Shown here: positions 1 to 20,709 of the stretch, piece after piece | Position numbering within the stretch: position 1 is the first letter of the stretch | Layout: each line of letters starts with the position of its first letter | Source of the DNA: Candidatus Micrarchaeota archaeon | GTDB lineage: Archaea; Micrarchaeota; Micrarchaeia; Norongarragalinales; SBBD01 | DNA: 64,000 nucleotides | NCBI GenBank assembly: GCA_018819225.1 | Contig: JAHJQN010000004.1 | Location: 685 to 64,684 of the forward strand | Direction: 5' to 3' | Position numbers and translations under genes: made by a program | Notes under the pieces: generated by a model | What the model saw: the letters and a program-made list of their open reading frames with translations, nothing else | Database searches by the model: none | What the model was told of the DNA's origin: nothing

Positions 1-5
1 TCGAG

Positions 6-259
6 GCTTCAATGGAGCCACGGTTTTTCAACCATGGGAAACGGGTTATGGGCGTTAATTTTTATAGCGGTGTTTAGCTTCAATGGAGCCACGGTTTTTC
101 AACCATGGGAAACTTCAACAGTATTCCAATCACTAGTATCGGGGTCAGGCTTCAATGGAGCCACGGTTTTTCAACCATGGGAAACTTTCGCCCAACGATA
201 CCCCGCCCCAGCTCCAGGTAATGCTTCAATGGAGCCACGGTTTTTCAACCATGGGAAAG
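6..259 (-). CRISPR. CRISPR array, partial (runs off the window start). Four copies of a 37-nt repeat, + strand GCTTCAATGGAGCCACGGTTTTTCAACCATGGGAAAC, at 6-42, 77-113, 149-185 and 223-259. Spacers are 34, 35 and 37 nt.
   Basis: Repeats read directly. Copies 1-3 are identical and copy 4 differs only at base 259 (G for C). The strand call is tentative. On the minus strand the repeat reads GTTTCCCATGG...CCATTGAAGC, the internal stem CCAUGG/CCGUGG closes with a G-U wobble (C-A mismatch on the + strand), and the array is co-directional with the cas operon. Confidence 0.93.
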
Positions 260-426
260 GCTTTTTATTTGCCGGTAAGGGGGTTTTCGAGTGCTTGAGG
301 TTATTGATGGATTTATTGTGATGAGATAGTTAAAAAGTTGCTGTTTTGTCTCGTCGTTACCTCGTAGAATGGTTTTTGCGAGAGGTGGTGCGCTCCGGTC
401 TCTGCATCTAGGCGCTCGCAAGAGCG
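260..426 (-). promoter_or_regulatory. Putative CRISPR leader between the cas2 stop and the nearest repeat
   Basis: 167-nt non-coding, partly AT-rich gap in the usual leader position if the array is transcribed on the minus strand. No motif-level proof. Confidence 0.4.
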
Positions 427-726
427 TTACACTATTGTTGGCGATCGGTCTTTCAAAGGTTTCTGCCTGCCTATGGACTCAATACGGTTTTTGCCCGTTC
501 CTTCTGCCGGTCCAAGGTTTGCTATGATTATCCGGTCTTCGTCTTGTTTGATTATTTCCGTTAGGGCTGCGTAGAGCATGACTTTTTCTTTTGGGGTAAG
601 CCGGCAAATGAATACGGAATATTGTGTATGTTCGCCGTATCCTTTCATCGTTAGGTAAACTTGGTGAAGGCGTTTTGGGTCCATGATGTCATAGCTTACC
701 AGATAGACGTTTTTCATTATCGTCAC
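427..726 (-). CDS. cas2: CRISPR-associated endoribonuclease Cas2
   Basis: 99 aa. N-terminal beta strand VYLVSYDI with the conserved Asp. Size and position directly after cas1 are typical. 4-nt overlap with the upstream gene. Confidence 0.9.
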   Translation of the reverse strand: MTIMKNVYLVSYDIMDPKRLHQVYLTMKGYGEHTQYSVFICRLTPKEKVMLYAALTEIIKQDEDRIIIANLGPAEGTGKNRIESIGRQKPLKDRSPTIV

Positions 727-9754: not shown

Positions 9755-10735
9755 ATGTGTTTAAAGCTTCCGCAACCTCGTTTCCTGAATGCACTGTTTG
9801 GACTCGACTGCACCATTACCCGTAACGGGTCGGGTAACCACGCTGGGCCCAAAGTGAAAAGCGGAGAGGTAGGCCGTCGAGTGTCGTTAAAGCAGGGGCT
9901 ATTCTGCTCCATTCAGAAGGTCTATAGCCAGCTTTCGAGCAGACGGGCGTATTCGCTTTACAAGAACGCGGAAGGCAGAGAGCAGATAGCGAAAGCGCCC
10001 AGCTACAATGTCGTGAACGTGTTTCTGAACCGTGAGGACGTTACTCCACTACTGCAAAACCTACTATCGCTCTCTGCCATGCCGTTGAAGGCAGTAGAAA
10101 CCGACTTCGCAGTAGATAGCTCTGGATTCAGGACTACCTGTTTTGGCGCATACGCCGAAGAGAAGTATAGCCTGCAAAGAGTCCACAAGTTCATCAAAGC
10201 CCACGCCATCATAGGTGTTAAAACGAATGTAATAACCGGTGTCGAAGTCTTGGAGGGCAACAGCGCAGATAGTCCGCAGTTGCCTGTTCTTGTTGAAAGG
10301 ACGGTTGAAGGGGGTTTCATAGCCAAGGAAGTGTCTGCCGACAAAGCATATAGCGGCCGGTCAAATATCGAAGCTATACACGCGGTCGGCGGGACTCCTT
10401 ACATACCTTTCAAGAGCAACGCTTCGGGCAAGAGCAGGGGTTCTTCCCTATGGCGCAAGGCGTTCTTCTTTTTCCAACTTCACGCCGACAAGTTCTTTCA
10501 ACACTATCACAAGCGCAGCAACGTCGAGAGTGTCTTTGGAGCAGTCAAAAAGAAGTTCGGCGAAACCATCAAGGCCAAGAACCCCGTAGCCCAAAAGAAC
10601 GAGTTGCTATGCAAGCTGATAGCCTACAACGTAACCGTATTGATTCAGGAAATGTTTGAACTCGGAATAAAGCCAGACTTCTCTGCTCAGGAAGTCGGCG
10701 GGGGCTCACAAAGTAGCCTTATGAGCAGACTTTAA
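9755..10735 (+). CDS. DDE transposase, IS4/IS5-like, probably lacking its N-terminus
   Basis: 326 aa. Candidate DDE residues lie in AVDSSGF, SADKAYSG and NVESVFGAVKKKFG. The region before VSLKQGLFCSIQKVYSQLSSRRA looks like only the tail of the usual N-terminal domain. The frame closes at a TGA at 9692-9694, only 33 nt from the cas3 start. Confidence 0.7.
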   Translation: MCLKLPQPRFLNALFGLDCTITRNGSGNHAGPKVKSGEVGRRVSLKQGLFCSIQKVYSQLSSRRAYSLYKNAEGREQIAKAPSYNVVNVFLNREDVTPLLQNLLSLSAMPLKAVETDFAVDSSGFRTTCFGAYAEEKYSLQRVHKFIKAHAIIGVKTNVITGVEVLEGNSADSPQLPVLVERTVEGGFIAKEVSADKAYSGRSNIEAIHAVGGTPYIPFKSNASGKSRGSSLWRKAFFFFQLHADKFFQHYHKRSNVESVFGAVKKKFGETIKAKNPVAQKNELLCKLIAYNVTVLIQEMFELGIKPDFSAQEVGGGSQSSLMSRL

Positions 10736-10743
10736 GAGCAAAG

Positions 10744-10849
10744 CTCCCTTCCGGCCATCGACGAGGACCGTTTCGTTGCCCGCCATTTCCTATCCTTTCC
10801 TATCCCCTACCCGGAAGCCCGCTATGACCTAGGAAATGAACTCACTGCC
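10744..10849 (+). repeat. Repeat C1, about 105 nt
   Basis: Manual alignment to 13854-13958 gives 82/102 identical positions. Contains CTTCCGG...CCGGAAG and CATTTCCTA...TAGGAAATG complementary pairs in interleaved order. Confidence 0.85.
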
Positions 10850-10882
10850 CTAAAACGGATATGTCCGTGTTTTGACTATATA

Positions 10883-10950
10883 CATTTGCCCCTTCATAAA
10901 GGGGTAAAAATAGGTATATTTGCCCCTCTAAAGAGTAACATTTATAAACA
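10883..10950 (+). promoter_or_regulatory. Promoter/operator region of the ATPase cassette
   Basis: Half-sites ATTTGCCCCT at 10884-10893 and 10918-10927, with an inverted copy AAGGGGTAAA at 10899-10908. TATA-like ACATTTATAAAC lies about 25 nt before the ATG at 10971. Confidence 0.45.
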
Positions 10951-10970
10951 AAGTCCCTTACAATGGTTGT

Positions 10971-12404
10971 ATGGACGATGCAGAATTGTTGAAATTGCTT
11001 TATACGTTTAATCCTTGGTGGGAAGGCAAAACGGTAAGTGTGCCTGAGAAGAAGCGGCGAGATTATTACGTATTATTGAAAGCGTTAGAGGACAAACAGA
11101 TAACTGCTATCCTTGGTCCTCGTAGGGTAGGGAAGTCCGTGTTAATGCAGCAGCTTATTACCCAATTATTGGAGGAAAAAGTAAATCCGAAAAGTATTCT
11201 GTTCGTACGTTTGGACGAGCCGCGTTTTGATCAAGAAAAGGGGCTTCTGATCAATCGTTTGCTTGAGGTATACTTGAAATACGTGCTTGAGTCGGAATTG
11301 GGTTCTTATCCAAAGAAAATCTATATTTTACTGGATGAAATCCAGCATGTTGAAAAATGGAACGAGACGTTAAAAAGTTATTACGATAGGGGGTACAAGA
11401 TTAAATTCGTGGTCAGTGGTTCTTCTGCTGCGGGGATAACAAAGGGAAGCTCAGAGTCCCTTGCTGGCAGAATTTCGATTCATCTCGTCATGCCTTTGAA
11501 ATTCATTGATTATCTAAAATTTAAGGGGATAAACGGCAATATTGAAAATGTAAGTTTTAGGCTTCGGGAAAGTTTAAAGTCCGCAATTGAAAAAGGAAAC
11601 GCATCTGATTTCGTAAAGGGCTTGAACAACAATTTATCAAATGCAGTGCAGAAGCAAGCTCAAATTGAACGCCTTCTTTCCGAATATATGATTAAGGGTG
11701 GATATATCGAGCTTATTGAAAATAAGGATTATGCTTGGTGTGCAAAATATCTTCAAGACCTTATGCAATTAGTGATCTACAAAGATATTGTTAAGGTGTT
11801 TGGAATTAGAAATCCAAAAGCAATGGAAGATTTACTACTCTTTTTAGGAAACCATTCATCCGAATTGTTCTCAGAAACAAGCGCATCTTCAAAACTTAAT
11901 ATGAAGCAGGAAACCGTTGGTGAATATTTAGATTATCTTGAAGAGGTTTTTTTGGCAAGGCGATCGGCAATATACTCTAAAAATAGGTCAAAGCAATTGC
12001 GGAATCCAAAAAAAGTGTATATTTGCGATACCGGAATCCGAAACGTTCTAAACGGCACTTATTCGAGAAGTGCTTTGCGGGATAGTAAAGACGTCGGTTT
12101 GATGGCAGAAACTGTTGCCCATGACCATCTAGTGCGGTTGGCTTTTCATCTCAACTCATATGATCCGAAGTGCTATTATTGGAAGAATGGGAAAGAAATT
12201 GACAACGTTATCGTCCATGGAAAGAAAGCAATTCCGATTGAAGTAAAATATAAAAACGACATCGTCTCTGAAGATTCAAAGTGTTGCTCGGAATTTATTG
12301 TAAGAAATGACAGTCCTTTTGGTATAGTAATTACAAAGGATAAATTTTCTCACAAAGATAAAATTATTTTCGTCCCATTTTGGTATTTTCTTCTTTTATG
12401 CTAA
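10971..12404 (+). CDS. AAA+ ATPase, COG1373/DUF4143-like
   Basis: 477 aa. Walker A GPRRVGKS and Walker B ILLDEIQHV. Length and C-terminal architecture are typical of the archaeal 'ATPase plus DUF4143' family. Confidence 0.75.
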   Translation: MDDAELLKLLYTFNPWWEGKTVSVPEKKRRDYYVLLKALEDKQITAILGPRRVGKSVLMQQLITQLLEEKVNPKSILFVRLDEPRFDQEKGLLINRLLEVYLKYVLESELGSYPKKIYILLDEIQHVEKWNETLKSYYDRGYKIKFVVSGSSAAGITKGSSESLAGRISIHLVMPLKFIDYLKFKGINGNIENVSFRLRESLKSAIEKGNASDFVKGLNNNLSNAVQKQAQIERLLSEYMIKGGYIELIENKDYAWCAKYLQDLMQLVIYKDIVKVFGIRNPKAMEDLLLFLGNHSSELFSETSASSKLNMKQETVGEYLDYLEEVFLARRSAIYSKNRSKQLRNPKKVYICDTGIRNVLNGTYSRSALRDSKDVGLMAETVAHDHLVRLAFHLNSYDPKCYYWKNGKEIDNVIVHGKKAIPIEVKYKNDIVSEDSKCCSEFIVRNDSPFGIVITKDKFSHKDKIIFVPFWYFLLLC

Positions 12405-12432
12405 TAATGAATCATTGACGAAAAACCTTGCC

Positions 12433-12551
12433 GCTGCTCATGATTTATTTCATCTCGCCAAAGGTTGATTTATATTTTCGCGCCGAATTCGGTAATCTAA
12501 TGCCGACAATTTTGATGCTTTTAGCCTACGGCAAGGAATGCGGCCAAGGCG
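12433..12551 (+). repeat. Cassette-junction element copy A1 (degenerate)
   Basis: Contains GCTGCTCATGATTTATTTCATCTCGCCAAAGGTTGATTTAT, the palindrome GCCGAATTCGG and the end GGCCAAGGCG. Aligns with 17425-17540. Confidence 0.85.
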
Positions 12552-12616
12552 CTTGAGTTTCAACCCAAACGCCCTGTTAATCCGTGTCTGCGGGTTTTAC
12601 CGTACAATATCGTTCG

Positions 12617-12695
12617 AAAATGTGTGGTAATTCTGTCCCTTTGGGTTTTGGCACACATTTGTTCCTTGAAATGTGTGGTAAGATTAATTAAGTCC
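12617..12695 (+). promoter_or_regulatory. Promoter/operator region of Fic cassette 1
   Basis: Exact 13-nt direct repeat AAATGTGTGGTAA at 12618-12630 and 12669-12681. Inverted copy CACACATTT at 12652-12660. TATA-like GATTAATTAAG lies about 25 nt before the ATG at 12714. Confidence 0.45.
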
Positions 12696-12713
12696 AAACT
12701 GCATACTATTTGC

Positions 12714-13646
12714 ATGAGGATTCGCAAGAAGGGTGTCAACGGAAAAGAGTACTATTACCTAGAGGAAACACTCAGGTTGGAAAAGCCTAAAGCGTATTCG
12801 ATATTCCTTGGTGCAAAAAAGCCCGGAAAAAGGCAGCTTGAGGCCTTCCGGAGGAAGCTGATCGATAAAATTTATGATGATTTGCTTTGGAAAAGGGGAC
12901 GGGTTTACCTTTCCAAAGAGCAATTGATTGAAGCTGAAAAACGAAGGCGGCGGTATACCGCGAGGGTTAAACGCCTGGGAAGGGCGGCTCGAGATGAAAA
13001 AGACGAAACCGATACCGTCAATTTTGTTTATACCACTCTCACGACCGAAGGGGTGCCGATAACCAAGGAAGACGCGAGCCTCGCCTACCGGTTTACCCAG
13101 AAGAACGTCAAGAGCCTGAGGGACGAGAGCCTTCGGGTAGCGCTTGACATGATTAAGGGGCTAAGGTTTGTCAAGGAGAGCAAAACCGGCATTTCAATGG
13201 ATTTCTTCCTCAATTTGCATGAAATCATCATGGCGGAATATGGCGAAACGGGGCCGGGAAGCATCCGGGACGTGCCAGCCTTCATTTACCTGAAAAGCCT
13301 TGAGAAAGTCGAGGAAATTGGCTTTAGGCCTTCTCCGCCAGATATGATAAGAAAGAAGCTTGAGGAATTGGTCGTATGGTATAATGCAAACATAGGCAAA
13401 TTGAACGCAATCGAGTTTGCAAGCCTGTTACACCTCCGCTTTTACATGATTCACCCTTTCAAGGACGGAAATAAGCGTATATCCAGGCTGCTTCTTAACA
13501 AGGCATTCCTTGATTCGGGCTATCCGATGCTGAACATTTCCAAGCAGTCGATGGACTATTTCGATGCCCTGATAAGATCGGTGGAAAGGAAAGCCGAGCG
13601 ACCGTTCGTCGAGTTTGTTTACGCCCGGTTTATTCAGGATATTTGA
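12714..13646 (+). CDS. Fic-domain protein with a non-canonical active-site motif
   Basis: Fic motif HPFKDGNKRISR, where canonical HxFx(D/E)GNGRxxR has G and this has K. Inhibitory-helix-like TLTTEG. I prefer the ATG at 12714 (MRIRKKGVNGKEYYYLEE, parallel to the N-terminus of the second Fic) over the GTG at 12624 given in the ORF track. Confidence 0.8.
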   Translation: MRIRKKGVNGKEYYYLEETLRLEKPKAYSIFLGAKKPGKRQLEAFRRKLIDKIYDDLLWKRGRVYLSKEQLIEAEKRRRRYTARVKRLGRAARDEKDETDTVNFVYTTLTTEGVPITKEDASLAYRFTQKNVKSLRDESLRVALDMIKGLRFVKESKTGISMDFFLNLHEIIMAEYGETGPGSIRDVPAFIYLKSLEKVEEIGFRPSPPDMIRKKLEELVVWYNANIGKLNAIEFASLLHLRFYMIHPFKDGNKRISRLLLNKAFLDSGYPMLNISKQSMDYFDALIRSVERKAERPFVEFVYARFIQDI

Positions 13647-13704
13647 CCCGCTCCATCAAGGTTATCAGAAAAACGGGTGGTAGCTGCAAATTTGTGATAA
13701 CTGA

Positions 13705-13780
13705 CCAAGGGTTATTTAAATTTTCGTGCTTAATTTGGCACTGTGGTGCCAACTTTTCGAAGGGGTCTAGACGCAGGTGA
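13705..13780 (+). repeat. Cassette-junction element copy B1
   Basis: CCAAGGGTTATTTAAATTTTCGTGCTTAATTTGGCACTGTGGTGCCAACTTTTCGAAGGGGTCTAGACGC. Same architecture as the other copies. Confidence 0.8.
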
Positions 13781-13853
13781 ATGCCTCGCCCTCAAAACCG
13801 CTTGTTTTTCACCCCTGGCACAGCTCTTCTTGCTCGAATCTATATAACGTCTG

Positions 13854-13958
13854 CTCCTTCCGGCCATTGACGAGAGCTATTATGTTGCCCGCCATTTCTT
13901 ATGCTTTCCCATTTCCTACTCGGAAACCTACCGTGACATAGGAAATGAACTCTCTGCC
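13854..13958 (+). repeat. Repeat C2, a solo copy of the transposase 3' flank
   Basis: See C1. There is no transposase next to this copy. Confidence 0.85.
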
Positions 13959-13976
13959 GGAGAACCTTCTACATAT

Positions 13977-14038
13977 GCCAAATGTAGTGGGGAACTATAG
14001 CCGATAAACTTAAATAGTCTTCGCCACTACAATTTGGC
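13977..14038 (+). promoter_or_regulatory. Promoter/operator region of Fic cassette 2
   Basis: Inverted repeat GCCAAATGTAGTGG (13977-13990) and CCACTACAATTTGGC (14024-14038) brackets a TATA-like AAACTTAAATAGTC. It ends at the ATG at 14039. Confidence 0.5.
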
Positions 14039-14956
14039 ATGACATTCGTTAGAAAGAGAAGCAAGGGCAACACGTACTACTACGAGCTTGTGGAAAGCCG
14101 CCGGGAAGGCGGCAAGGTCCGGCAGAACGTCCTGAAATACTTTCCAAGCGCGCATGAGGCTGAAAGCTACGCCAAGGGCGCAGGAATTGAGTTTAGAATG
14201 GCCCAAGAGAATTGGATTGATTCCACTTTGGCGCAAAGACTGGAAGACAAGCTCCGAAAACTGAATTCATTGCGTCCGCTTCCGCAGGAAATGCTCAAGC
14301 GGTTGCGCGAGAAGTTCGAGGTTGACATGACGTATAATTCCAACGCCATCGAGGGCAACCGCCTTAACTTGAGGGAAACCTGGCTCGTCCTGAGAAAGGG
14401 TATGACGATACGCGGAAAGTCGATGGTTGAGCACTTGGAGGCCACCAACCACTTGGAAGCTCTCAGTTTGCTTGAAAAAATGGCTAACCGTAAAAAGGAA
14501 GTAGTCGAAGCGGATGTCTTATCCCTGCATGCGGCGGTTCTTGATAAAATCGACTCCCCGAACGCTGGCTTTTACCGGCATGAGCAAGTCTACATCCAGG
14601 GTTCGAAACTCACACTTCCAAATTGGAGGAAAGTCCCGGAAATGATGAAAACGGTATTCGGTGAATTCAAAGCCCGAAAGACCAGAATTGAGGCGGTTTA
14701 CTCGGCGGTTAAAATTCACTACGAAACCGTCCGAATCCACCCCTTCGTCGACGGCAACGGAAGGCTTGCCCGCCTGTTAATGAACCTGAGGCTGATGCGC
14801 GCTGGCTTTCCTCCAATGGTGCTGCGCCGAGAGGAAAGGCGTGCCTATTACTCGGCGCTTGAAAAAGCCGACAAGGGCGACTTTAGGCCGATATCCATGC
14901 TGGTTGCAAAGGACGTTGAAGCTGCGTTGGATCTTTACTTGGACTCAGTCGCATGA
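14039..14956 (+). CDS. Fic-domain protein (canonical AMPylase-type motif)
   Basis: 305 aa. HPFVDGNGRLARLL matches HxFx(D/E)GNGRxxR. N-terminal inhibitory motif SNAIEGN. Confidence 0.88.
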   Translation: MTFVRKRSKGNTYYYELVESRREGGKVRQNVLKYFPSAHEAESYAKGAGIEFRMAQENWIDSTLAQRLEDKLRKLNSLRPLPQEMLKRLREKFEVDMTYNSNAIEGNRLNLRETWLVLRKGMTIRGKSMVEHLEATNHLEALSLLEKMANRKKEVVEADVLSLHAAVLDKIDSPNAGFYRHEQVYIQGSKLTLPNWRKVPEMMKTVFGEFKARKTRIEAVYSAVKIHYETVRIHPFVDGNGRLARLLMNLRLMRAGFPPMVLRREERRAYYSALEKADKGDFRPISMLVAKDVEAALDLYLDSVA

Positions 14957-15037
14957 GTTAATACTGTGATTGAGTGCCGTATCGATATGAGGGATTTCAA
15001 CCCCCCGGCTAGACGCCTAGGCACGGATTCGAACCGA

Positions 15038-16123
15038 CTATTCTACACTTTTCTGGGTGCCTTTTTGGAGATCCTTGAGTTCTTGGATGATGACATTGAG
15101 GTTTAGTAGTTGTGCGACGTGCATGACGTATAAATTGTGGTCTGGGCGGCTGAATATTTCTGGTTTTGCTAGAAATTGTCCCACTCGGGAGTCGTACGGC
15201 GATAGCTTTCTGTCCGCTTTGGATAGTTGTTTTATCGCAATGCGGGGGCTTCCGTAAATGCTTGCTGCGGTTTGAGCGTGTTTGGTGAAATCCGTTCTTC
15301 CACGTGCATTAACCAGAAGGTTGCGCAGTTCTTTTTTTTGTTTGGGTGTGCCTCCGGCTGCTGCTGCGATTCTTCTTGCCGCGAGAGACCATACGACCCC
15401 CTTTATTCGGTTGTATTTTGCTATCGCTTGCGGCTTGCCTTCGAGCAGTTCGTCCAAGTCGTAGGGTGTCTTGGCGTATAGCCGATCGAATTTGCGTTTT
15501 AATTCCTTGAACGTTTTCCAATGGGCGATGTTAGTCTTCTCTGCCGGTATGGCCTTGGCGGCTTTTACTGGTTTGTGTTCTTTTACCGCTTGGAGGTATG
15601 CGGTTAGCCCGTTTTGGTGGGCGGTAATGTTGGTTAACCTGTTAGAATATTTTTCCTGCAATTCCTTGTATTGCGGGTTTTTCAGAAGATCTTCTTCCAT
15701 GGCGTAGGAGTAGATTGCGACCTTTACTTTCGGGTGCCGTTCAAGCACTTCGCGTGCGACCGAAATTCCGGTTACCGGCATTTTTACTTCGGCTTGGGTT
15801 GCAAGTTGGTGAAATTGCCTCGCGTTCGGCTCGCTTGTATTTGCGTCCCTCATGAATTGCAGCGCCTGCTGTTCCGAGCGGCCTTCCATAACGTAGCGTC
15901 GCATTGCTTCGTTAGGCCACCGGATGCGGCTTAGGTCGTATGTAACATGGTCGGTCAGCTGCCAGTCAATAATCACGTGGGTCGGCTTGTGCGCCCGGAT
16001 TTCGCTGTGCATCTCCAGCGGGAATTTTGCGTGGGCAGCGGGCATCCCGTGCTCGTTTATCGTGTTCGTGATTAGTTGCCGTACGCCCGGCTCGTCGTGT
16101 ACAACCAGCAGTTTCGGTGGCAT
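15038..16123 (-). CDS. Hypothetical protein with a degenerate receiver (CheY-like) N-terminus
   Basis: 361-aa ORF preceded by its own TATA-like promoter. The N-terminus KLLVVHDEPGVRQLI...THVIIDWQL resembles a REC domain with substitutions and an insertion. No other recognisable motif. Confidence 0.6.
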   Translation of the reverse strand: MPPKLLVVHDEPGVRQLITNTINEHGMPAAHAKFPLEMHSEIRAHKPTHVIIDWQLTDHVTYDLSRIRWPNEAMRRYVMEGRSEQQALQFMRDANTSEPNARQFHQLATQAEVKMPVTGISVAREVLERHPKVKVAIYSYAMEEDLLKNPQYKELQEKYSNRLTNITAHQNGLTAYLQAVKEHKPVKAAKAIPAEKTNIAHWKTFKELKRKFDRLYAKTPYDLDELLEGKPQAIAKYNRIKGVVWSLAARRIAAAAGGTPKQKKELRNLLVNARGRTDFTKHAQTAASIYGSPRIAIKQLSKADRKLSPYDSRVGQFLAKPEIFSRPDHNLYVMHVAQLLNLNVIIQELKDLQKGTQKSVE

Positions 16124-16217
16124 GATTTGCTTCTGTCTGCGTTTTCTTTAAAACCCTTTCAAAAAGGCGGTTTTCCCAACTTTCATTCAGTATACTGTCG
16201 GGCATTTGACAAGAAAA

Positions 16218-17276
16218 TTATTTTCTAGTCCTTTGGAGTTTTCTTTCAGCTTTTAATATGCGTCTTTGATTAGGGTGGCGCATTTTGAAGTGTTCCCAAT
16301 CCAGTAAATAGGGAAGTCGTTCGTGTTCGCGGGATTGACCTTTCCAGGCGGGTGCGTCATATAATTCCCTTCTTTTCCCTAATTGTCGTATGTTAACCCA
16401 TGGAAAGCCTATTTCCGGTAGGGCAACTTTCTGTCGCATCATTTTGGCGAATCCGGGGCTTCGCGCGGTTGCTTTTATGAGTCCGGTTCGGATGATTCCG
16501 CCTGTCCGGTTTGCTGCCCTGCTGTAGGCGGATTCCGCGTGCAATCCGTATTCTGCGACAAGGCGGCCGATGGCGACGTCCTCCCATGGATGTAATACAG
16601 CGAATAATCTTCTGCGTTCATGTTTATCTCTGCCCATGAACAGGAGGCGGTTGTATTCCAGTGCGGCGAGTTCCTTTTCGAAACGAGCAAGTTTTCGGTC
16701 GGAAAGGTTCGGGCTCTTTTGTTTTAATGTTTGTACGCCGTTTCTGGCGATGACTCTTCCGAGGATGCGCAACAGGCTGTCTTTCGTGCGTTCGGAGGCT
16801 CTCGTTTTTCCGGCGTTTCGGCGCTGGACTTTGTGGAATCGTGCGATGAGCTGGTCGGGAAGCATTCGGAAATCGAGAGGTTCTTCCATCCATTTTATGG
16901 GCGGTGGTTCATTCTTGAGTTGTCTTAAATGGTCTCGTTTTGCAAAGTCTCCTGTGAGATTCACTAGCTGTTTCATAGCCCATGTGGGTTGGCTTTCTCC
17001 AAATCCTCTTTCGTGAGACCGTTCGATGTTGGTTCGGAGTGTTGTTAGGGAGTTTTGGTGGCTTACGGGTTGGTGTCGGAATAGGTATTCCATCGCGTAG
17101 TGCACGATCCTTCTTTTATCCTCGCTGGATCGCGGCAGGCGGGCTCTGGCTCCCGCCATTCGAATAAGAAAGCTTCGCGCGTATTCATAGGCTTCGGGTC
17201 TTTCGAACCTTTCTTGCTCCGCATCGATTCTTGATACCCGCCTTCCGATGTAGCGGGGAAACGTGAAGCGCTTCAT
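16218..17276 (-). CDS. Hypothetical protein, very basic and Arg-rich
   Basis: 352-aa ORF. TATA-like ATATTTAAAACC lies about 25-30 nt upstream on the minus strand. No motif that I recognise. Confidence 0.55.
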   Translation of the reverse strand: MKRFTFPRYIGRRVSRIDAEQERFERPEAYEYARSFLIRMAGARARLPRSSEDKRRIVHYAMEYLFRHQPVSHQNSLTTLRTNIERSHERGFGESQPTWAMKQLVNLTGDFAKRDHLRQLKNEPPPIKWMEEPLDFRMLPDQLIARFHKVQRRNAGKTRASERTKDSLLRILGRVIARNGVQTLKQKSPNLSDRKLARFEKELAALEYNRLLFMGRDKHERRRLFAVLHPWEDVAIGRLVAEYGLHAESAYSRAANRTGGIIRTGLIKATARSPGFAKMMRQKVALPEIGFPWVNIRQLGKRRELYDAPAWKGQSREHERLPYLLDWEHFKMRHPNQRRILKAERKLQRTRK

Positions 17277-17424
17277 ATGATCGTTAATTTGAATTAGGTT
17301 TTAAATATTGTGTGATACCAGCTTAGAAGCCCGCATGTCATTCCTTTCAGATTTTATCGCTTACTTACGCATCAGATTGTTTGAACGACGCGCCTCCATC
17401 CAAAACCGTTTCTCGAACCAAATC

Positions 17425-17540
17425 GCTGCTCACGATTTATCTCATCTCGCCAAAGGTTGATTTATTGATTCGCGCCGAATTCGGCACGACAGTGCCAACT
17501 TTTTTGAGGCGTTGAGCCCTCGTCCAGGAGCTCGGCCAAG
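17425..17540 (+). repeat. Cassette-junction element copy A2
   Basis: GCTGCTCACGATTTATCTCATCTCGCCAAAGGTTGATTTATTGATTCGCGCCGAATTCGGCACGACAGTGCCAACTTTTTTGAGGCGTTGAGCCCTCGTCCAGGAGCTCGGCCAAG. Confidence 0.9.
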
Positions 17541-17609
17541 TCAAATCCATTTTTTTAGCTCACACGCCTGTTTGAAAACAGGTGGTTGTTCGAGTGGGTT
17601 TTGCGTGTT

Positions 17610-17894
17610 TCAATCGTATGTGTGCTCGTCCCTGAGGCCGAAATTGAGCACCTGAATCTTCTTTCGCTTCCAGTCCACGAAATACTGTAGCCGATAACGG
17701 GAAAGGCGGATGCGAAAGTATCCGTCGCCGCCCGACAGCTTGGTCACATCGTAGCGTTTCGCGGGGACGGGCTCAGTTTGGAGTATTCCGGCAAGTTCAT
17801 GCACGCGCTTCCTCATTTCCGGATTTGCTTTGCGGATTGCTTTAAGTGCTTGCGGACTGAAATAGATGTTAAACACAGAGGGCACCCGCAGCAT
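17610..17894 (-). CDS. RelE/ParE-family type II toxin
   Basis: 94 aa. The pattern YFRIRLSRYRLQYFVDWKRKKIQVLNFGLRDEHTY is typical of RelE/ParE. 1-nt overlap (TGATG) with the upstream small gene. Confidence 0.8.
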   Translation of the reverse strand: MLRVPSVFNIYFSPQALKAIRKANPEMRKRVHELAGILQTEPVPAKRYDVTKLSGGDGYFRIRLSRYRLQYFVDWKRKKIQVLNFGLRDEHTYD

Positions 17895-18094
17895 CAGAAC
17901 AGCGTCCTTGTGTACGGGACCGAGTTTCCTTCGTCCATTTCGGACTTGATTTTTCGCAAGCGAGCCAGCTCCTTGGCGGAAGCCTTTTCTTCAGGGATCA
18001 GGCTTAAGAGCAAGGCGTTGTTTTTCTCCACTTCATGCTTCAAATTCTTGACTTCCCGATACAATATGTTGACGTTGACTTCCACGAATAACAC
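17894..18094 (-). CDS. Putative cognate antitoxin
   Basis: 66 aa, helical and charged, translationally coupled directly upstream of the RelE-like gene. The start codon is uncertain. Confidence 0.55.
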   Translation of the reverse strand: MLFVEVNVNILYREVKNLKHEVEKNNALLLSLIPEEKASAKELARLRKIKSEMDEGNSVPYTRTLF

Positions 18095-18110
18095 CGGAAT
18101 AATTAGCTAT

Positions 18111-18232
18111 CACCGGTTATTTAAATACGAGTGTAGCACGTTTCGGGTAATTTATTATTTCGCGTCGATTATGACGCGCAAACGCCAATTTTTAAGGCCT
18201 TGACCCCTCGTCTAGAAGCTTGGCCAAGGCGT
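18111..18232 (+). repeat. Cassette-junction element copy B2 (long variant with a duplicated AT-rich 5' module)
   Basis: GGTTATTTAAATACGAG..., then TTTATTATTTCGCGTCGATTATGACGCGCAAACGCCAATTTTTAAGGCCTTGACCCCTCGTCTAGAAGCTTGGCCAAGGCG. Confidence 0.8.
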
Positions 18233-18268
18233 TCTGGCTTTTTTTTTGGGGGGGGGCATCGTTTCAGG

Positions 18269-18679
18269 TTACAGTATTCCCACTTTTTTGGCGAGCTCTG
18301 CGGTTGAATACACTGGAATCCTCGTTTGCGCCTTCAAGTCCTTGTCGTTAGACCATACAGCCGCGTTTTCCTTAAGCGCAACTGCTACGTACAGCCAGTC
18401 CTTGGGGTCCGAAACGAGGGTTCGTGCGGCAGGCAGGTACGGTTTCAATTCCCGGTCGGGAACGAGTTCAATGAACGAAAGCACGTCTCTAATCAACGCG
18501 TCAAATTTTTTCTCTCCGTACGCGTATTTTCCAAGCAGGTACGTGCGGTATTTCAAGTACTCGCGCGCGATGAATTTCGGTGCATACAATTGCAAGTCTG
18601 GGTTGAACAAGAGCCTTCGCGTCATGCCGTCCTTCAGGAGAGCAGCAAACAAGACGTTGGCATCAATTACGGTCTTCAT
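18269..18679 (-). CDS. vapC: PIN-domain toxin VapC
   Basis: 136 aa. N-terminal VIDANVLFAAL and C-terminal WSNDKDL supply the acidic PIN residues. Overlaps the upstream antitoxin gene. Confidence 0.85.
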   Translation of the reverse strand: MKTVIDANVLFAALLKDGMTRRLLFNPDLQLYAPKFIAREYLKYRTYLLGKYAYGEKKFDALIRDVLSFIELVPDRELKPYLPAARTLVSDPKDWLYVAVALKENAAVWSNDKDLKAQTRIPVYSTAELAKKVGIL

Positions 18680-18905
18680 TCAGAAGCGCCTTGGCATGTT
18701 TTCGGGCGGATGCGTCGACTTTCTTTACGAGGATTTTGACGTCCTCTTCGGTCAGCCTGCTCCCGGAAGCTAGCGCTTCGGTTCTTTCGAGCGCTTCCAG
18801 CTTTTCTCCGATGACGGTTCGGATGGCGCTTGACCAGCGGATGTCCTTATGCTGGTCCATACGTTTCTTCAGGTCATCGGGAATGAACAACGTGACGTTT
18901 GCCAT
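18663..18905 (-). CDS. vapB: VapB-type antitoxin
   Basis: 80 aa. N-terminus MANVTLFIPDDLKKRMD has the ribbon-helix-helix/AbrB-like antitoxin pattern. 17-nt overlap with vapC. Confidence 0.7.
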   Translation of the reverse strand: MANVTLFIPDDLKKRMDQHKDIRWSSAIRTVIGEKLEALERTEALASGSRLTEEDVKILVKKVDASARKHAKALLNEDRN

Positions 18906-18922
18906 TTTTGTTCACCTTTTCT

Positions 18923-18942
18923 TATATGTGTAATCACATATA
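18923..18942 (-). promoter_or_regulatory. Palindromic operator in the vapBC promoter
   Basis: Perfect 8-bp arms TATATGTG-TAAT-CACATATA overlap a TATA-like ATTTATAT (minus strand) about 20-45 nt upstream of the vapB ATG. Confidence 0.5.
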
Positions 18943-19035
18943 AATACCTTTGCATTTGTTCATTCGTGTATTATAGTTCCTTTAACTTCCTCTGCTTTAT
19001 GAAAAGTCTGACCAGAATATTATGGATAAACTTGG

Positions 19036-19128
19036 CAAAGGTTGATTTATTTATTCGTGCCAAATTTAGCACGATAATGCCATTTATTTTGAGGCGTTGA
19101 GTCCGTGTCTAGGAGCTCGGCCAAGGCG
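19036..19128 (+). repeat. Cassette-junction element copy A3
   Basis: 93 nt, with 90/93 positions identical to 20289-20381 by manual count. Confidence 0.92.
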
Positions 19129-19450
19129 TCGAACCTATACCTAACAGTAGGTTCGACTCCCTATCAGGGTGTCATACCTTCGCCGTTGGTGACCCTGTTT
19201 TGGGCCTTTCTGAAGCCTTTATTGGCTTTTCATTGGCTTTTTTGACGCTATTTTCCCATTTTCCTGGCAACCACCTTTGACGCTCTGGCTCAAGCCTTTG
19301 CTCTATAAATAGCTTGCTCCAGCACCCTGATTCCGTTCATCAACAAAATCCTTTCAGGCGATAGGCTAGGAGGTATTGGATTCCTTGCAATTACATTTCG
19401 AGACACCTCGCGGCTCGCAATCTCTGACTTGCCATGCCCTTACTAATGCC

Positions 19451-19510
19451 GCAAGGGTCTCATATCAATTCGTGCTAAATTTGGCACGGTGGTGCCAACT
19501 TTGTTGATAG
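19451..19510 (+). repeat. Cassette-junction element copy B3 (5' half only)
   Basis: GCAAGGGTCTCATATCAATTCGTGCTAAATTTGGCACGGTGGTGCCAACTTTGTTGATAGG. Confidence 0.7.
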
Positions 19511-19567
19511 GACCAGCAAACGGCTTAACCTCTCGTTAGGGTTTTGATGTGAAATGTGCCACAATTA

Positions 19568-20227
19568 TTATTGAGCACTTGCCGACTCTTTGAATTCTCT
19601 TCTTATCTTTTCTGCTTTTCGAAGCATTTTGTTTATCGCTCCACGATTAAACCAGGTGTCGGGTTGAAATGGAAACATGCGCCCATCCATTAGTTTATAG
19701 TCTATGATTACCGGAATCGATTTGCCTTCTCCGATATTCTTCACCATAATGTTATCCGGGTGAAGATCCATTAACGGCGTCTTATTGGATTTAAAATAAT
19801 TAATAAGTTCATCGAATTTACTCCAAAAATGTGGGTTGAGCTTGCCTTGGTTCATGCTGAGCGGCGTTGCTGGAGTTCCATCCGCATTTCTTACTCGTTC
19901 CATGTGGAGGACGCTGTTAAGCCCTGAACCCTCTAACTTCAATACTTTCGCAAAGCAATCTGACAATCTGCGAGGCGAGTGGGAAAAACAGCGGTTGTAG
20001 TTATCTTTTTCCATACGATTTAGGTCGGTTGATCCATATTTCCAGCGGATATACCAGCCTAAAGGGTAATCGACATGGAAAAAACCATAGTTTTTTGTCC
20101 GAAAACCTTTGTGTCTTTTTTCAACGATGTCTTCATGAAAAGTTACTTTTCGGTATCTTCCTTCACCGATTGACGCAAGTCGTCTTCTGCTTTGTTGTTC
20201 GGGCAAGCCCCCGATTTTGAAACGCAT
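19568..20227 (-). CDS. Atypical protein-kinase-like protein (YrbL/Kdo-kinase-like fold)
   Basis: 219 aa. Catalytic-loop-like MDLHPDNIMV followed by VIIDY (DFG-equivalent position). The assignment rests on these motifs only. Confidence 0.5.
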   Translation of the reverse strand: MRFKIGGLPEQQSRRRLASIGEGRYRKVTFHEDIVEKRHKGFRTKNYGFFHVDYPLGWYIRWKYGSTDLNRMEKDNYNRCFSHSPRRLSDCFAKVLKLEGSGLNSVLHMERVRNADGTPATPLSMNQGKLNPHFWSKFDELINYFKSNKTPLMDLHPDNIMVKNIGEGKSIPVIIDYKLMDGRMFPFQPDTWFNRGAINKMLRKAEKIRREFKESASAQ

Positions 20228-20288
20228 AATTACCTTCGGTCTTATCTTTCTTTAAAACCCTTTCAAAGTTGGTTTTTTCCTTAGTTTT

Positions 20289-20381
20289 CAAAGGTTGATT
20301 TATTTATTCGTGCCAAATTTAGCACGATAATGCCATTTATTTTGAGGCGTTGAGCCCGCGTCTAGGAGTTCGGCCAAGGCG
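20289..20381 (+). repeat. Cassette-junction element copy A4
   Basis: 93 nt, near-identical to A3. Confidence 0.92.
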
Positions 20382-20391
20382 CTCGGAATTT

Positions 20392-20709
20392 TTAATCGAT
20401 TCGAAATACTCGGAACTGTTCGTCTTCATACTCGGCCGCAAAGGTTGATATGAGACGCTTGACCGTTGGACACAATGTTTCGCTGTCCGATTCCTTGCGT
20501 TGAACAAACGCTCGCACTTTTCCTTCTTTCATGAATTGCATTGCAACTGATAAATCGCTGCAATACTGCATACCCGACTTCACGTTCTGCATTACGCTCT
20601 CATCAAAAGGCCCGTAAGCCGCGTCCCTTCCGGATAATTGAATCCATTGAGCCTTAGTCACCATAGATAGGAGTGCGCATTCTGGGATATTACGTTTCGT
20701 TGCCTCCAC
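20392..20709 (-). CDS. Hypothetical protein
   Basis: 105-aa ORF filling the last module of the island. No recognisable motif. Confidence 0.45.
   Translation of the reverse strand: MEATKRNIPECALLSMVTKAQWIQLSGRDAAYGPFDESVMQNVKSGMQYCSDLSVAMQFMKEGKVRAFVQRKESDSETLCPTVKRLISTFAAEYEDEQFRVFRID

Follow-up and report, generated by a model that had tools for sequence, protein, structure and literature searches.

In a 64-kb stretch of a Candidatus Micrarchaeota genome (contig JAHJQN010000004.1 of assembly GCA_018819225.1; hereafter the window), a defence and toxin-antitoxin island adjoins a type I clustered regularly interspaced short palindromic repeats (CRISPR)-Cas locus, and its small gene modules are separated by a shared junction element of ~95-120 nt. 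We call this element J and its copies in the window J1 to J7. The interpretation that we favour, with a confidence only a little past even, is that the island is a tandem array of small integrase-less integrative modules with attP-derived ends, served by an integrase in trans. Each J would be the attP-derived right end of one module, made of a P arm and a crossover core, and the 5' half of J would be the arm motif of the tRNA-targeting tyrosine integrases of Micrarchaeota. Such an integrase would act in trans to recombine a circular module with the tRNA-Asp gene's 3' end or, alternatively, with the equivalent core ending a module that had already integrated. Modules would in this manner stack head to tail with all junctions pointing in the same direction, and a tRNA 3' end, in many cases with an oligo-T terminator, would come in with each newcomer. 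Later decay, insertion of insertion sequences (IS) and rearrangement would have produced partial copies and left the array apart from the tRNA gene.

Junction element J and its anatomy

The source genome was read as the window plus 9.3 kb upstream of it, the latter on L019 (73 kb in all, from the 709-kb contig ena:ERZ27247117:k141_304414). One protein whose gene lies just beyond the window has a 100% identical counterpart in 'Candidatus Micrarchaeota archaeon', in line with the assignment of the genome. L019 is the reverse complement of the window, such that L019 position x is window position 12400 - x. A profile hidden Markov model (HMM) built from the seven copies recovered exactly seven J in the window, all on the + strand (E = 1e-31 to 3e-21), its other matches being self-matches of the palindrome on the - strand only. 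A second model, built from 12 copies, returned the same seven in the window and none in the 9.3 kb upstream. By direct-repeat search, alignment and profile HMM, all seven are intergenic, the range that they occupy being 12.4 to 20.4 kb. With seven copies in these 8 kb and none in the ~65 kb of surrounding source sequence, the clustering is clear, and the two-sided probability that all seven would share one orientation by chance is 0.016. Spacing from J to J is 0.4-1.3 kb, except for one interval of 3.7 kb; at least two co-oriented sites less than 4 kb apart, with one or two ORFs in each cassette between them, are the arrangement used to recognise clusters of attC sites lacking integron integrases (CALINs), and the likeness is one of geometry only. 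The RelBE and VapBC modules measure ~0.7 and 0.9 kb between successive J cores, and each consists of one operon and one site. A preliminary description of this DNA, made from the letters alone, had placed seven co-oriented copies at module junctions; the HMM returned the same seven, the coordinates given there proved right to within a few bases, and the gene modules it listed (ATPase, two Fic, orphans, RelE and VapBC, kinase-like protein, 105-aa open reading frame (ORF) and transposase) were confirmed by Pfam and gene calls. A weak partial copy that it placed near 14998 found no support, being ~63% similar by eye to the 3' half and giving no HMM match at E <= 0.05.

J5 and J7 (at 19036 and 20289) are identical at 90 of 93 positions by direct count (92% in the alignment), just as had been claimed for two of the copies. 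Identity stops exactly at both edges, and the flanks of the two do not share an identical base on either side. Other pairs are 45-79% identical with unrelated flanks. The conserved 3' ends (GGCCAAGGCG) are found at 12551, 18231, 19128 and 20381, the copy at 17425 has a variant end (GGCCAAGTCA) at 17543, and the copies at 13705 and 19451 match the consensus in their 5' half only. These comparisons bear on an explanation that dispenses with site-specific recombination altogether, in which J would be what is left of one ancestral intergenic region in a variable defence island, multiplied by segmental duplication, homologous recombination or gene conversion. It could draw on the presence of IS elements, on the fact that both J and a second non-coding unit, D14, are multi-copy in the region, and on the near-identical pair, which could be a product of gene conversion. 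However, the copies apart from that pair are only 45-79% identical and have unrelated flanks, homologous J occur in genomes in which the flanking protein is only 38-46% identical, and a related contig carries a precise insertion at the end of tRNA-Asp, and we consider this explanation highly improbable.

The 5' half of J comprises (C)AAGG, an AT-rich box, the dyad TTCGYGCC-RAATTY-GGCACG and, 4-5 nt further on, a third half-site, GTGCCAAC. In its typical form (CGTGCC-AAATTT-GGCACG) the dyad has arms of 5-8 bp and a spacer of 6 bp, and its symmetry is kept across 24 sites from many genomes. Since compensatory changes are seen in one copy only (two in J4, CGCGTC-GATTAT-GACGCG) and are not significant when compared with shuffles, we read the dyad as the putative binding site of a dimeric protein rather than as a folded strand. 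The 3' half, of ~45 nt, is less conserved than the 5' half and terminates in (C/T)(T/G)CGGCCAAGGCG in five copies of the window, counting one variant, as well as in those of three other contigs (L003, L004 and L008). J1 and J3 have in common a 5' extension of 28 nt, and J6 combines a conserved 5' half (dyad at 19469) with a divergent 3' half that is of the L005 type and has no tRNA-Asp core.

Structure predictions were carried out on J as RNA and as single-stranded DNA. Neither J nor D14 matched an Rfam family at gathering or permissive thresholds, and RNAalifold returned for J the central dyad and a weak end-to-end helix only. Single-stranded DNA folds of both strands gave z-scores between +1.2 and -3.0, with the lowest values at 19027-19130 (a full copy, -2.6) and 19440-19540 (a partial one, -3.0); consistent folding is confined to the short central dyad, and there is no complementarity between the two ends of J. 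A regular-expression search of both strands of the 12 J copies found no pair of attC R'' (RYYYAAC) and R' (GTTRRRY) boxes 57-141 nt apart. J was accordingly rejected as an integron attC site, and the array as a CALIN, for want of R''/R' boxes and of a whole-site hairpin. The preliminary description had already remarked that canonical attC geometry is absent, and the box search and folds agree with it. The resemblance to a CALIN that it drew stands as regards the layout, with one site per small module, but not as regards the boxes or an attC-type hairpin. The ends of J do not form inverted repeats, and no flank is duplicated around J5 or J7, so that the hallmarks of a miniature inverted-repeat transposable element are lacking as well.

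The tRNA-Asp end and comparison with related genomes

Two adjacent intron-bearing tRNA genes lie 5.4-5.8 kb left of window position 1 (L019 17806-17939 and 18021-18159, - strand). Both introns are ~60 nt long, and both genes, missed by ARAGORN in its default mode, were found by Rfam. The second of the pair, tRNA-Asp(GTC) at L019 17806-17939, stands 5.4 kb to the left of the window and shares the strand of J. Its last 11 nt, CGGCCAAGGCG, are also the end of J1, J4, J5 and J7, and the probability that an 11-mer at such a boundary would match the end of any of ~45 tRNAs by chance is roughly 1e-5. Oligo-T runs act as archaeal terminators. Within 10 nt after the core, oligo-T is present in three of five window copies and at the tRNA junction of L008, compared with 7% of random 30-nt windows, as expected of DNA selected to sit directly 3' of a tRNA gene.

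In the source genome, what comes immediately after tRNA-Asp is a short hairpin (TCTAACCgtaGGCTAGA), then CTCCCTCA, then a TATA-like box and D14. The latter is a conserved non-coding unit with the TATA-like sequence CTATATAA and an invariant 10-bp inverted repeat (CATTTCCTAT-N35-ATAGGAAATG), found at window 10747-10940 and 13781-13965, at L019 17530-17760 (-), at L008 ~540-700 (-) and, as its 5' part, at L024 2215-2315 (-), directly 3' of tRNA-Asp or of a J copy. The genes that it precedes are co-oriented with it and differ from site to site (a MarR-like gene, the AAA ATPase, Fic2 and a 129-aa ORF). D14 copies are ~80% identical as estimated from alignments (79% for the two window copies according to the repeat finder), and the neighbouring protein is only 38% identical between genomes. 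The copy D14a is without the TATA-bearing 5' part of the others, an IS transposase cutting off the promoter part. A portable promoter-leader is one possible role for D14, and the att system's other arm is another. A connection between J and the MarR-like gene (for a protein of 315 aa), which adjoins tRNA-Asp and D14 in the source genome, would be speculation. Transposase genes adjoin J or D14 in three genomes (IS66 at L004 101-1378 and L043 10368-11693; DDE_Tnp_1 at window 9755-10735); IS may insert preferentially in J/D14 junction regions or be tolerated there, and they may have moved arrays.

The arrangement at tRNA-Asp was then compared with that in related genomes. Contig L008, from the metagenome-assembled genome (MAG) JAZDGU01, is syntenic with the source genome: a 482-aa gene, 38% identical to the 491-aa gene of the source, is followed by tRNA-X and tRNA-Asp, and the same intron-bearing tRNA pair is present in L008 and in L024 (GCA_005239845.1). 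Between the end of tRNA-Asp and the hairpin/D14 flank, L008 has 1,214 nt consisting of a Fic gene on the opposite strand and a full J. Both edges of this insert carry the direct repeat CGGCCAAGGCGT, and J makes up its distal end. The corresponding empty site is seen in the source genome, where the hairpin/D14 flank lies directly 3' of tRNA-Asp, and the hairpin occupies the same position in L024, whose TCTAGCCATAGGCTAGACTCCCTC is identical to the sequence after J in L008. In these alignments, the unit of Fic cargo and J in L008 has the classical marks of an element integrated site-specifically at a tRNA gene's 3' end. The combination of tRNA gene, direct repeat and empty site is present in L008 and is not seen in the window array. 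Within the window, J2 consists of the 5' half (AT box, dyad at 13723 and GTGCCAAC), then AAGGGGTCTAGAC, then a remnant of the native hairpin downstream of tRNA-Asp, and looks like the outcome of a deletion or an alternative crossover between two 'AAGGCG + hairpin' copies.

The RelB-like antitoxin gene next to J4 provides a second comparison. A protein 68% identical to it is encoded next to J in L003 (MAG JAZDFO01), and another, P0134, 70% identical, adjoins J in L043, a different contig of JAZDGU01; in both, the arrangement matches that of the window. The window and L003 are homologous across the antitoxin gene and J up to GGCCAAGGCGT, where homology ends; the right-hand neighbours of antitoxin and J differ, being the VapBC module, a small ORF plus MacB/FtsX, and an M17 peptidase. 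All named homologues of the island antitoxin are from Micrarchaeota, and the unnamed ones are metagenomic. The same toxin-antitoxin pair is found without J in other Micrarchaeota (L034-L042 and L044), and on that ground we rejected J as the promoter of the RelBE operon. Three of those contigs, the closely related L034-L036 from groundwater Micrarchaeota, have common flanks with differing small genes around the RelBE homologue (about 8.3-9.7 kb and beyond 10.5 kb); no J was found there, and the place looks like another variable spot with a different mechanism. In all three comparisons made (the L008 insert, antitoxin plus J, and J5/J7), homology breaks off at the 3' end of J, and the mapped breakpoints fall at the tRNA-like core, ~55-65 nt downstream of the dyad. 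J thus behaves as the preliminary description had proposed, as a recombination-site relic that marks module boundaries.

The same data allow us to weigh a reading in which J is a self-standing intergenic repeat (a mini mobile element, a promoter or operator-terminator, or a small RNA gene) and the cargo is not mobile. Both edges of J are sharp and its flanks unrelated. In several copies (J1, J3 and J5), the 5' edge, with sequences such as CTCGCCAAAGG, TCTCGCCAAAGG and CTTGGCAAAGG, resembles the 3' core (CTCGGCCAAGG), as if the element were bounded by a repeat. J has a TATA-like AT box and is followed by T-runs, the related motif occupies the promoter position of the integrase gene in the integrase units described below, and J is present at several loci in both JAZDFO01 and JAZDGU01. 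However, the insert of L008 is Fic plus J and not J alone, antitoxin and J travel together, and the element has neither terminal inverted repeats nor a target-site duplication. A transcribed or regulatory element is also at odds with the lack of an Rfam family, of a significant fold and of covariation in more than one copy; with the varying distance from the AT box to the start of the left-hand gene, about 60 to 185 nt as estimated from coordinates; and with the nearer AT-rich box of RelBE (TTATTTAAATA), by eye a possible TATA of its own. As cargo travels along with J, and as the 3' edge matches the tRNA end to the exact base, we regard a self-standing repeat as distinctly unlikely.

A linked family of tyrosine integrases

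A search for the 28-nt core pattern of J gave 6 matches in ~186,000 species genomes and 10 in Joint Genome Institute (JGI) metagenomes, where ~4-5 are expected by chance per collection (an estimate); in the GTDB genomes, the matches were confined to Micrarchaeota MAGs. In nine independent contigs (L006, L007, L009-L011 and L013-L016; for example, L007 1018-2562), J HMM positions ~17-67 match a site beside the start of an integrase gene (E about 1e-7), with the core motif no more than 100 nt upstream of the start; these units target tRNA-Leu. They look like integrative elements of ~1.5 kb that contain little besides the integrase, an Xer-like tyrosine recombinase of ~400 aa with a C-terminal zinc ribbon. 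The family has many well-conserved members in Micrarchaeota, the best 120 matches all being 55-90% identical. The gene adjoins tRNA-Leu(CAG), tRNA-Leu(TAG) or tRNA-Leu(GAG) in three contigs; no tRNA-Leu gene was detected beside it in L009, L013 and L015, and its upstream side in L009 and L013 holds only 12-20-nt fragments of a tRNA-Leu 3' end. Relatives of the integrase are found near genes resembling those of type IV secretion systems, or in tandem with a second integrase and a resolvase, and, among annotated relatives, archaeal pleolipovirus integrases come closest (39% identity to that of Geoglobus acetivorans pleomorphic virus 1, over 87% of the length). Because of its varied tRNA-Leu neighbours and fragments, its mobile contexts and its viral relatives, we conclude that the family is mobile and not a fixed housekeeping gene.

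This conclusion is pertinent to the possibility that the dyad is a dif-like site for the housekeeping XerA, with the modules as passengers of chromosome dimer resolution resembling pdif modules or integrative mobile elements exploiting Xer (IMEX). The pdif modules of Acinetobacter plasmids are bounded by inverted sites, on which the housekeeping XerC/D act. Like those modules and IMEX, the modules described here are small, often contain toxin-antitoxin genes, have short dyad sites and depend on a recombinase encoded elsewhere. The recombinase linked to J is nearest to XerA/XerC/XerD models and structures, some database entries name family members XerA, and the arms of 5-8 bp with a 6-bp AT-rich spacer come close to the 11-6-11 layout of archaeal dif (PMC8371274). 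Unlike pdif modules, however, the sites here are all direct, and the mapped breakpoints all fall at the tRNA-like core, ~55-65 nt away from the dyad. The recombinase reaches 101 bits where the XerA cut-off is 220, is found beside three tRNA-Leu isoacceptor genes or tRNA fragments only, occurs in tandem copies and in mobile-element contexts, and has viral integrases as its closest annotated relatives. With a mobile recombinase and breakpoints outside the dyad, this possibility is very unlikely. The simple form of it, XerA acting at dif, had been considered after a gene annotated 'XerA' was found beside the motif and was rejected, the gene being mobile and related to virus integrases. GC skew tracks gene orientation across the window and is uninformative on a terminus or dif.

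The layout of the integrase units suggests how J may be related to a complete attachment site. Only in L007 and L013 was a second, inverted copy of the motif seen, past the stop codon of the integrase gene, which thus has a copy on either side; in L007 a degenerate repeat of the tRNA-Leu end (9/11) lies ~27 nt beyond the second copy, a suggestive feature that was noticed after the fact. The distance from motif to tRNA end is ~33 nt in the integrase units and ~45 nt in J. This suggests a roughly symmetric attP with, on each side, a motif ~30-45 nt from the tRNA-end core, of which J would be an integrase-less, tRNA-Asp-specific arm. We infer an action of the integrase family on J, in trans, and present or past mobility of the modules in the source genome; since no module encodes an integrase, they would be non-autonomous.

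Several observations weigh against the array of integrase-less modules as we propose it. Relative to the tRNA, the motif of the integrase units is inverted and on the opposite side compared with J, so that the link between motif and integrase depends on the inferred symmetry of attP. Searched with tblastn and the family HMM, the ORFs of the 73-kb source read and of the J-bearing loci yielded no integrase, whether in the modules or, in other MAGs, less than ~10 kb from a full J. The modules show no left (P') arm that is conserved, which bears on their capacity for excision, and the 3' half of J holds an internal 'AAGGCG + hairpin' copy, which bears on the position of the crossover. The copies of J in L003, L004, L005 and L043 abut core genes with no tRNA nearby. 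The window array itself is ~17.8 kb from tRNA-Asp, directly after which the 'empty-site' flank is found, and the CRISPR-Cas block, an IS and a second D14 copy intervene; either the CRISPR-Cas block is a large proximal module or the region has been rearranged. Finally, no polymorphism of order or presence was seen in the sole second sample, Logan contigs of SRR6514730 (located by exact-protein look-up; its contigs break at repeats), which show the same module order. Searches of mobile-element collections gave no core-pattern match in IMG/VR, where contigs with related integrases (27-41% identity) carry no convincing J, and no J match in PLSDB.

With respect to the recombinase, the preliminary description had stated that none is encoded in the window, which tblastn and the family HMM upheld for the window and the 9.3 kb upstream. 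It had also named, as an outcome that would refute a capture system, that no recombinase ever co-occurs with the element. That outcome was not borne out, as the core motif stands near the integrase start in nine contigs; however, the integrase was not found beside any full J. The suggestion there of an undescribed recombination system was right in that J is not a canonical attC; the system need not be undescribed, however, the 3' end of J being the end of tRNA-Asp and its 5' half the motif found beside genes of a mobile, tRNA-targeting integrase family.

The island, known systems and possible significance

The features of the island are collected in Table 1. No ORF of at least 50 aa is present in the unit at 19129-19450, which may be a decayed copy of the tRNA-Asp flank (D14-like), judging by a weak alignment with D14 flanks. 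The 352-aa orphan (16218-17276, -) has 6 relatives among 1.8e9 representative proteins and is predicted to be all-alpha (predicted local distance difference test 80, predicted template modelling score 0.70), with no fold match in the PDB (best E about 1). It was considered as a hidden recombinase and rejected, as no recombinase fold is recognisable in the predicted model. The 361-aa orphan has a weak receiver-like match only.

Table 1. Features of the island and its left edge, in window coordinates.
Feature	Position	Strand	Evidence	Remarks
IS transposase DDE_Tnp_1, 326 aa	9755..10735	+	Pfam PF01609, E = 2e-18	between cas3 and the island
D14a leader unit, inverted repeat CATTTCCTAT..ATAGGAAATG	10747..10940	+	direct repeat family, alignments	precedes the AAA ATPase gene
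AAA ATPase (AAA_14 + DUF4143), cargo	10971..12404	+	Pfam; PADLOC PDC-S01, E = 4e-69	candidate defence family
J1, full	12432..12551	+	nhmmer E = 2e-24	degenerate dyad from 12477; core GGCCAAGGCG 12542-12551
Fic protein 1, SoFic-like, cargo	12624..13646	+	Pfam Fic; PADLOC SoFic	likely start 12714 (310-aa gene call)
J2, short form without distal core	13705..13780	+	nhmmer E = 2e-21; alignment with L008 and tRNA-Asp flank	
D14b	13781..13965	+	repeat family, alignments	TATA-like CTATATAA at 13841-13848; precedes Fic2
Fic protein 2, cargo	14039..14956	+	Pfam Fic; PADLOC PDC-S04/SoFic	
Possible decayed J 3' half	14990..15030	+	~63% similar by eye; no nhmmer match at E <= 0.05	
Two orphan genes, 361 aa and 352 aa, cargo	15038..17276	-	gene calls	
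J3, full	17424..17543	+	nhmmer E = 3e-28	dyad at 17469; variant core GGCCAAGTCA 17534-17543; T7 run 10 nt downstream
ParE/RelE-like toxin (94 aa) and antitoxin (66 aa), cargo	17610..18094	-	Pfam ParE_toxin, weak	
J4, full	18133..18231	+	nhmmer E = 2e-19	dyad element start 18159; core 18222-18231; T9 run 7 nt downstream
VapC (PIN_2) and VapB (RHH), cargo	18269..18905	-	Pfam; RHH_12 gene call	
J5, full	19036..19128	+		followed by hairpin and CTCCCT, like the native tRNA-Asp downstream flank
ORF-less unit	19129..19450	+		starts with hairpin GTCGAACCTA..TAGGTTCGAC and TCCCTATCA
J6	19451..19540	+	nhmmer E = 3.5e-20	69-70% identical to the L004 and L005 copies
YrbL/PhoP-regulon-like kinase-fold protein, 219 aa, cargo	19568..20227	-	weak Pfam and NCBIfam matches	
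J7, last full copy	20289..20381	+	nhmmer E = 3e-28	core 20372-20381; T5 run 8 nt downstream
Vestige of J 5' edge CTCGGCCGCAAAGGTTGAT, 20 nt	20432..20452	+		50 nt past J7, inside the doubtful 105-aa ORF

Further observations concern the neighbourhood of the island. The CRISPR array (37-nt repeat GCTTCAATGGAGCCACGGTTTTTCAACCATGGGAAAC; window 1-260, L019 ~11980-13650, L020 8974-9306) runs past the start of the window and is adjoined by a type I cas operon with a Cas4-Cas1 fusion. In the SRR6514730 contig, the distance between cas2 and the next gene is ~1.4 kb shorter, reflecting either collapse of the array in assembly or a strain difference. Elsewhere in the window, at 31312-38307 (-), a 2,331-aa ORF contains many diverged tandem repeats of 309 nt (103 aa) and gives a weak Integrin_beta match; a repeat-rich surface protein is the probable product.

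In streptococcal integrative and conjugative element (ICE) systems, cis-mobilizable elements (CIMEs) that lack an integrase stack at tRNA genes; CIMEs, like plasmids or viruses integrated in archaeal genomes, usually measure from several kb up to tens of kb. By analogy, an integrase-less cis-mobilizable element stacked at a tRNA att site would be the nearest named concept for the modules described here. Like CIMEs and other tandem elements, they have a core that is a tRNA 3' end, direct core repeats that bound the insert, and head-to-tail stacking, and as in CIMEs, members without an integrase depend on one in trans or in cis. Unlike CIMEs, the modules span only ~0.7-1.25 kb between J cores (with one composite stretch of 5 kb), the small ones hold a single operon, only the P-side arm is conserved, and the array is no longer beside a tRNA gene. 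For archaea, there is published evidence of elements integrated in tandem at a single locus (PMC8371274). The core used by SNJ2-type archaeal integrases measures 14 bp and lies at the tRNA 3' end, and conserved arms and a MarR-like accessory protein are employed as well (PMC5861418). The likeness to SNJ2 and the pleolipoviruses extends to a 'simple' Xer-like tyrosine integrase, an int gene close to att and conserved arms, the core being 11-12 bp here compared with 14 bp in SNJ2, at the tRNA 3' end in both. In contrast, the SNJ2-type elements are whole proviruses with their own integrase and accessory proteins, whereas no SNJ2-like Orf2 or Orf3 was identified here and the Micrarchaeota enzymes carry a C-terminal zinc ribbon. 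A search of the literature found no description of such arrays in DPANN archaea.

The comparison with integrons needs more care. As in integrons and CALINs, one co-oriented site accompanies each module of one or two genes and lies almost wholly upstream of the breakpoint, the cargo is rich in toxin-antitoxin genes as in CALINs, and there is no neighbouring integrase. Integron sites, however, are folded single strands with RYYYAAC/GTTRRRY boxes, both of which are lacking here, as is IntI in the sequence searched; J is instead of the attP type, a double-strand sequence whose core is a tRNA end. Micrarchaeota are not named in the text of the paper on archaeal integrons (PMC9668308). One may nevertheless ask whether the island is a true integron analogue, a working platform and not a fossil, at which a dedicated recombinase, of this or another family, captures, excises and reshuffles single-operon cassettes, with J corresponding to attC and the tRNA-Asp end to attI. 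The RelBE and VapBC modules, each one operon with one site, would fit such a platform, as would site information almost all on one side of the breakpoint, a cargo of toxin-antitoxin and defence genes, two sites 97% identical, which suggests recent exchange, and the presence of an antitoxin-plus-J cassette in three genomic contexts. Set against this are the absence of an adjacent integrase and of a visible promoter/attI platform, the lack of attC geometry in 12 copies, the position of the array away from a tRNA gene, the identical module order in the sole second sample, and the partial and decayed sites, which suggest erosion rather than active turnover. We hold a true integron analogue to be unlikely. 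Possible, though doubtful, is a functional analogue of integrons in Micrarchaeota that employs double-strand att chemistry: cassettes of ~0.7-1.3 kb with an attP-type site of ~95 bp and a crossover at its extreme 3' end would be captured serially downstream of tRNA-Asp by the pleolipovirus-related zinc-ribbon integrase in trans, into a defence and toxin-antitoxin platform beside CRISPR-Cas with D14 as the platform promoter.

For the tandem array of integrase-less modules that we favour, the chemistry is most likely an ordinary attP x attB reaction into a tRNA gene, repeated in tandem. The best-supported model is therefore one in which the logic is integron-like and the chemistry is that of conventional tRNA-targeting integration. 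The novelty would lie in miniature, cassette-sized, integrase-less integrative modules keyed to tRNA-Asp in Micrarchaeota.

DPANN archaea have genomes of less than 1 Mb and depend on hosts, and little is known of how they gain and exchange accessory genes. The locus suggests a route, in which operon-sized candidate defence and toxin-antitoxin modules with a portable site keyed to a tRNA end are stacked beside CRISPR-Cas; a recombinase with its gene at another place would bring in small units of genes one by one. Searches for such modules across Micrarchaeota have two markers to draw on, the J profile and the integrase family. If activity is confirmed, the pair would represent a compact new archaeal integrase/att system, and the array a second, mechanistically different solution to the capture of small promoter-less or self-promoted cassettes by a trans-acting recombinase.

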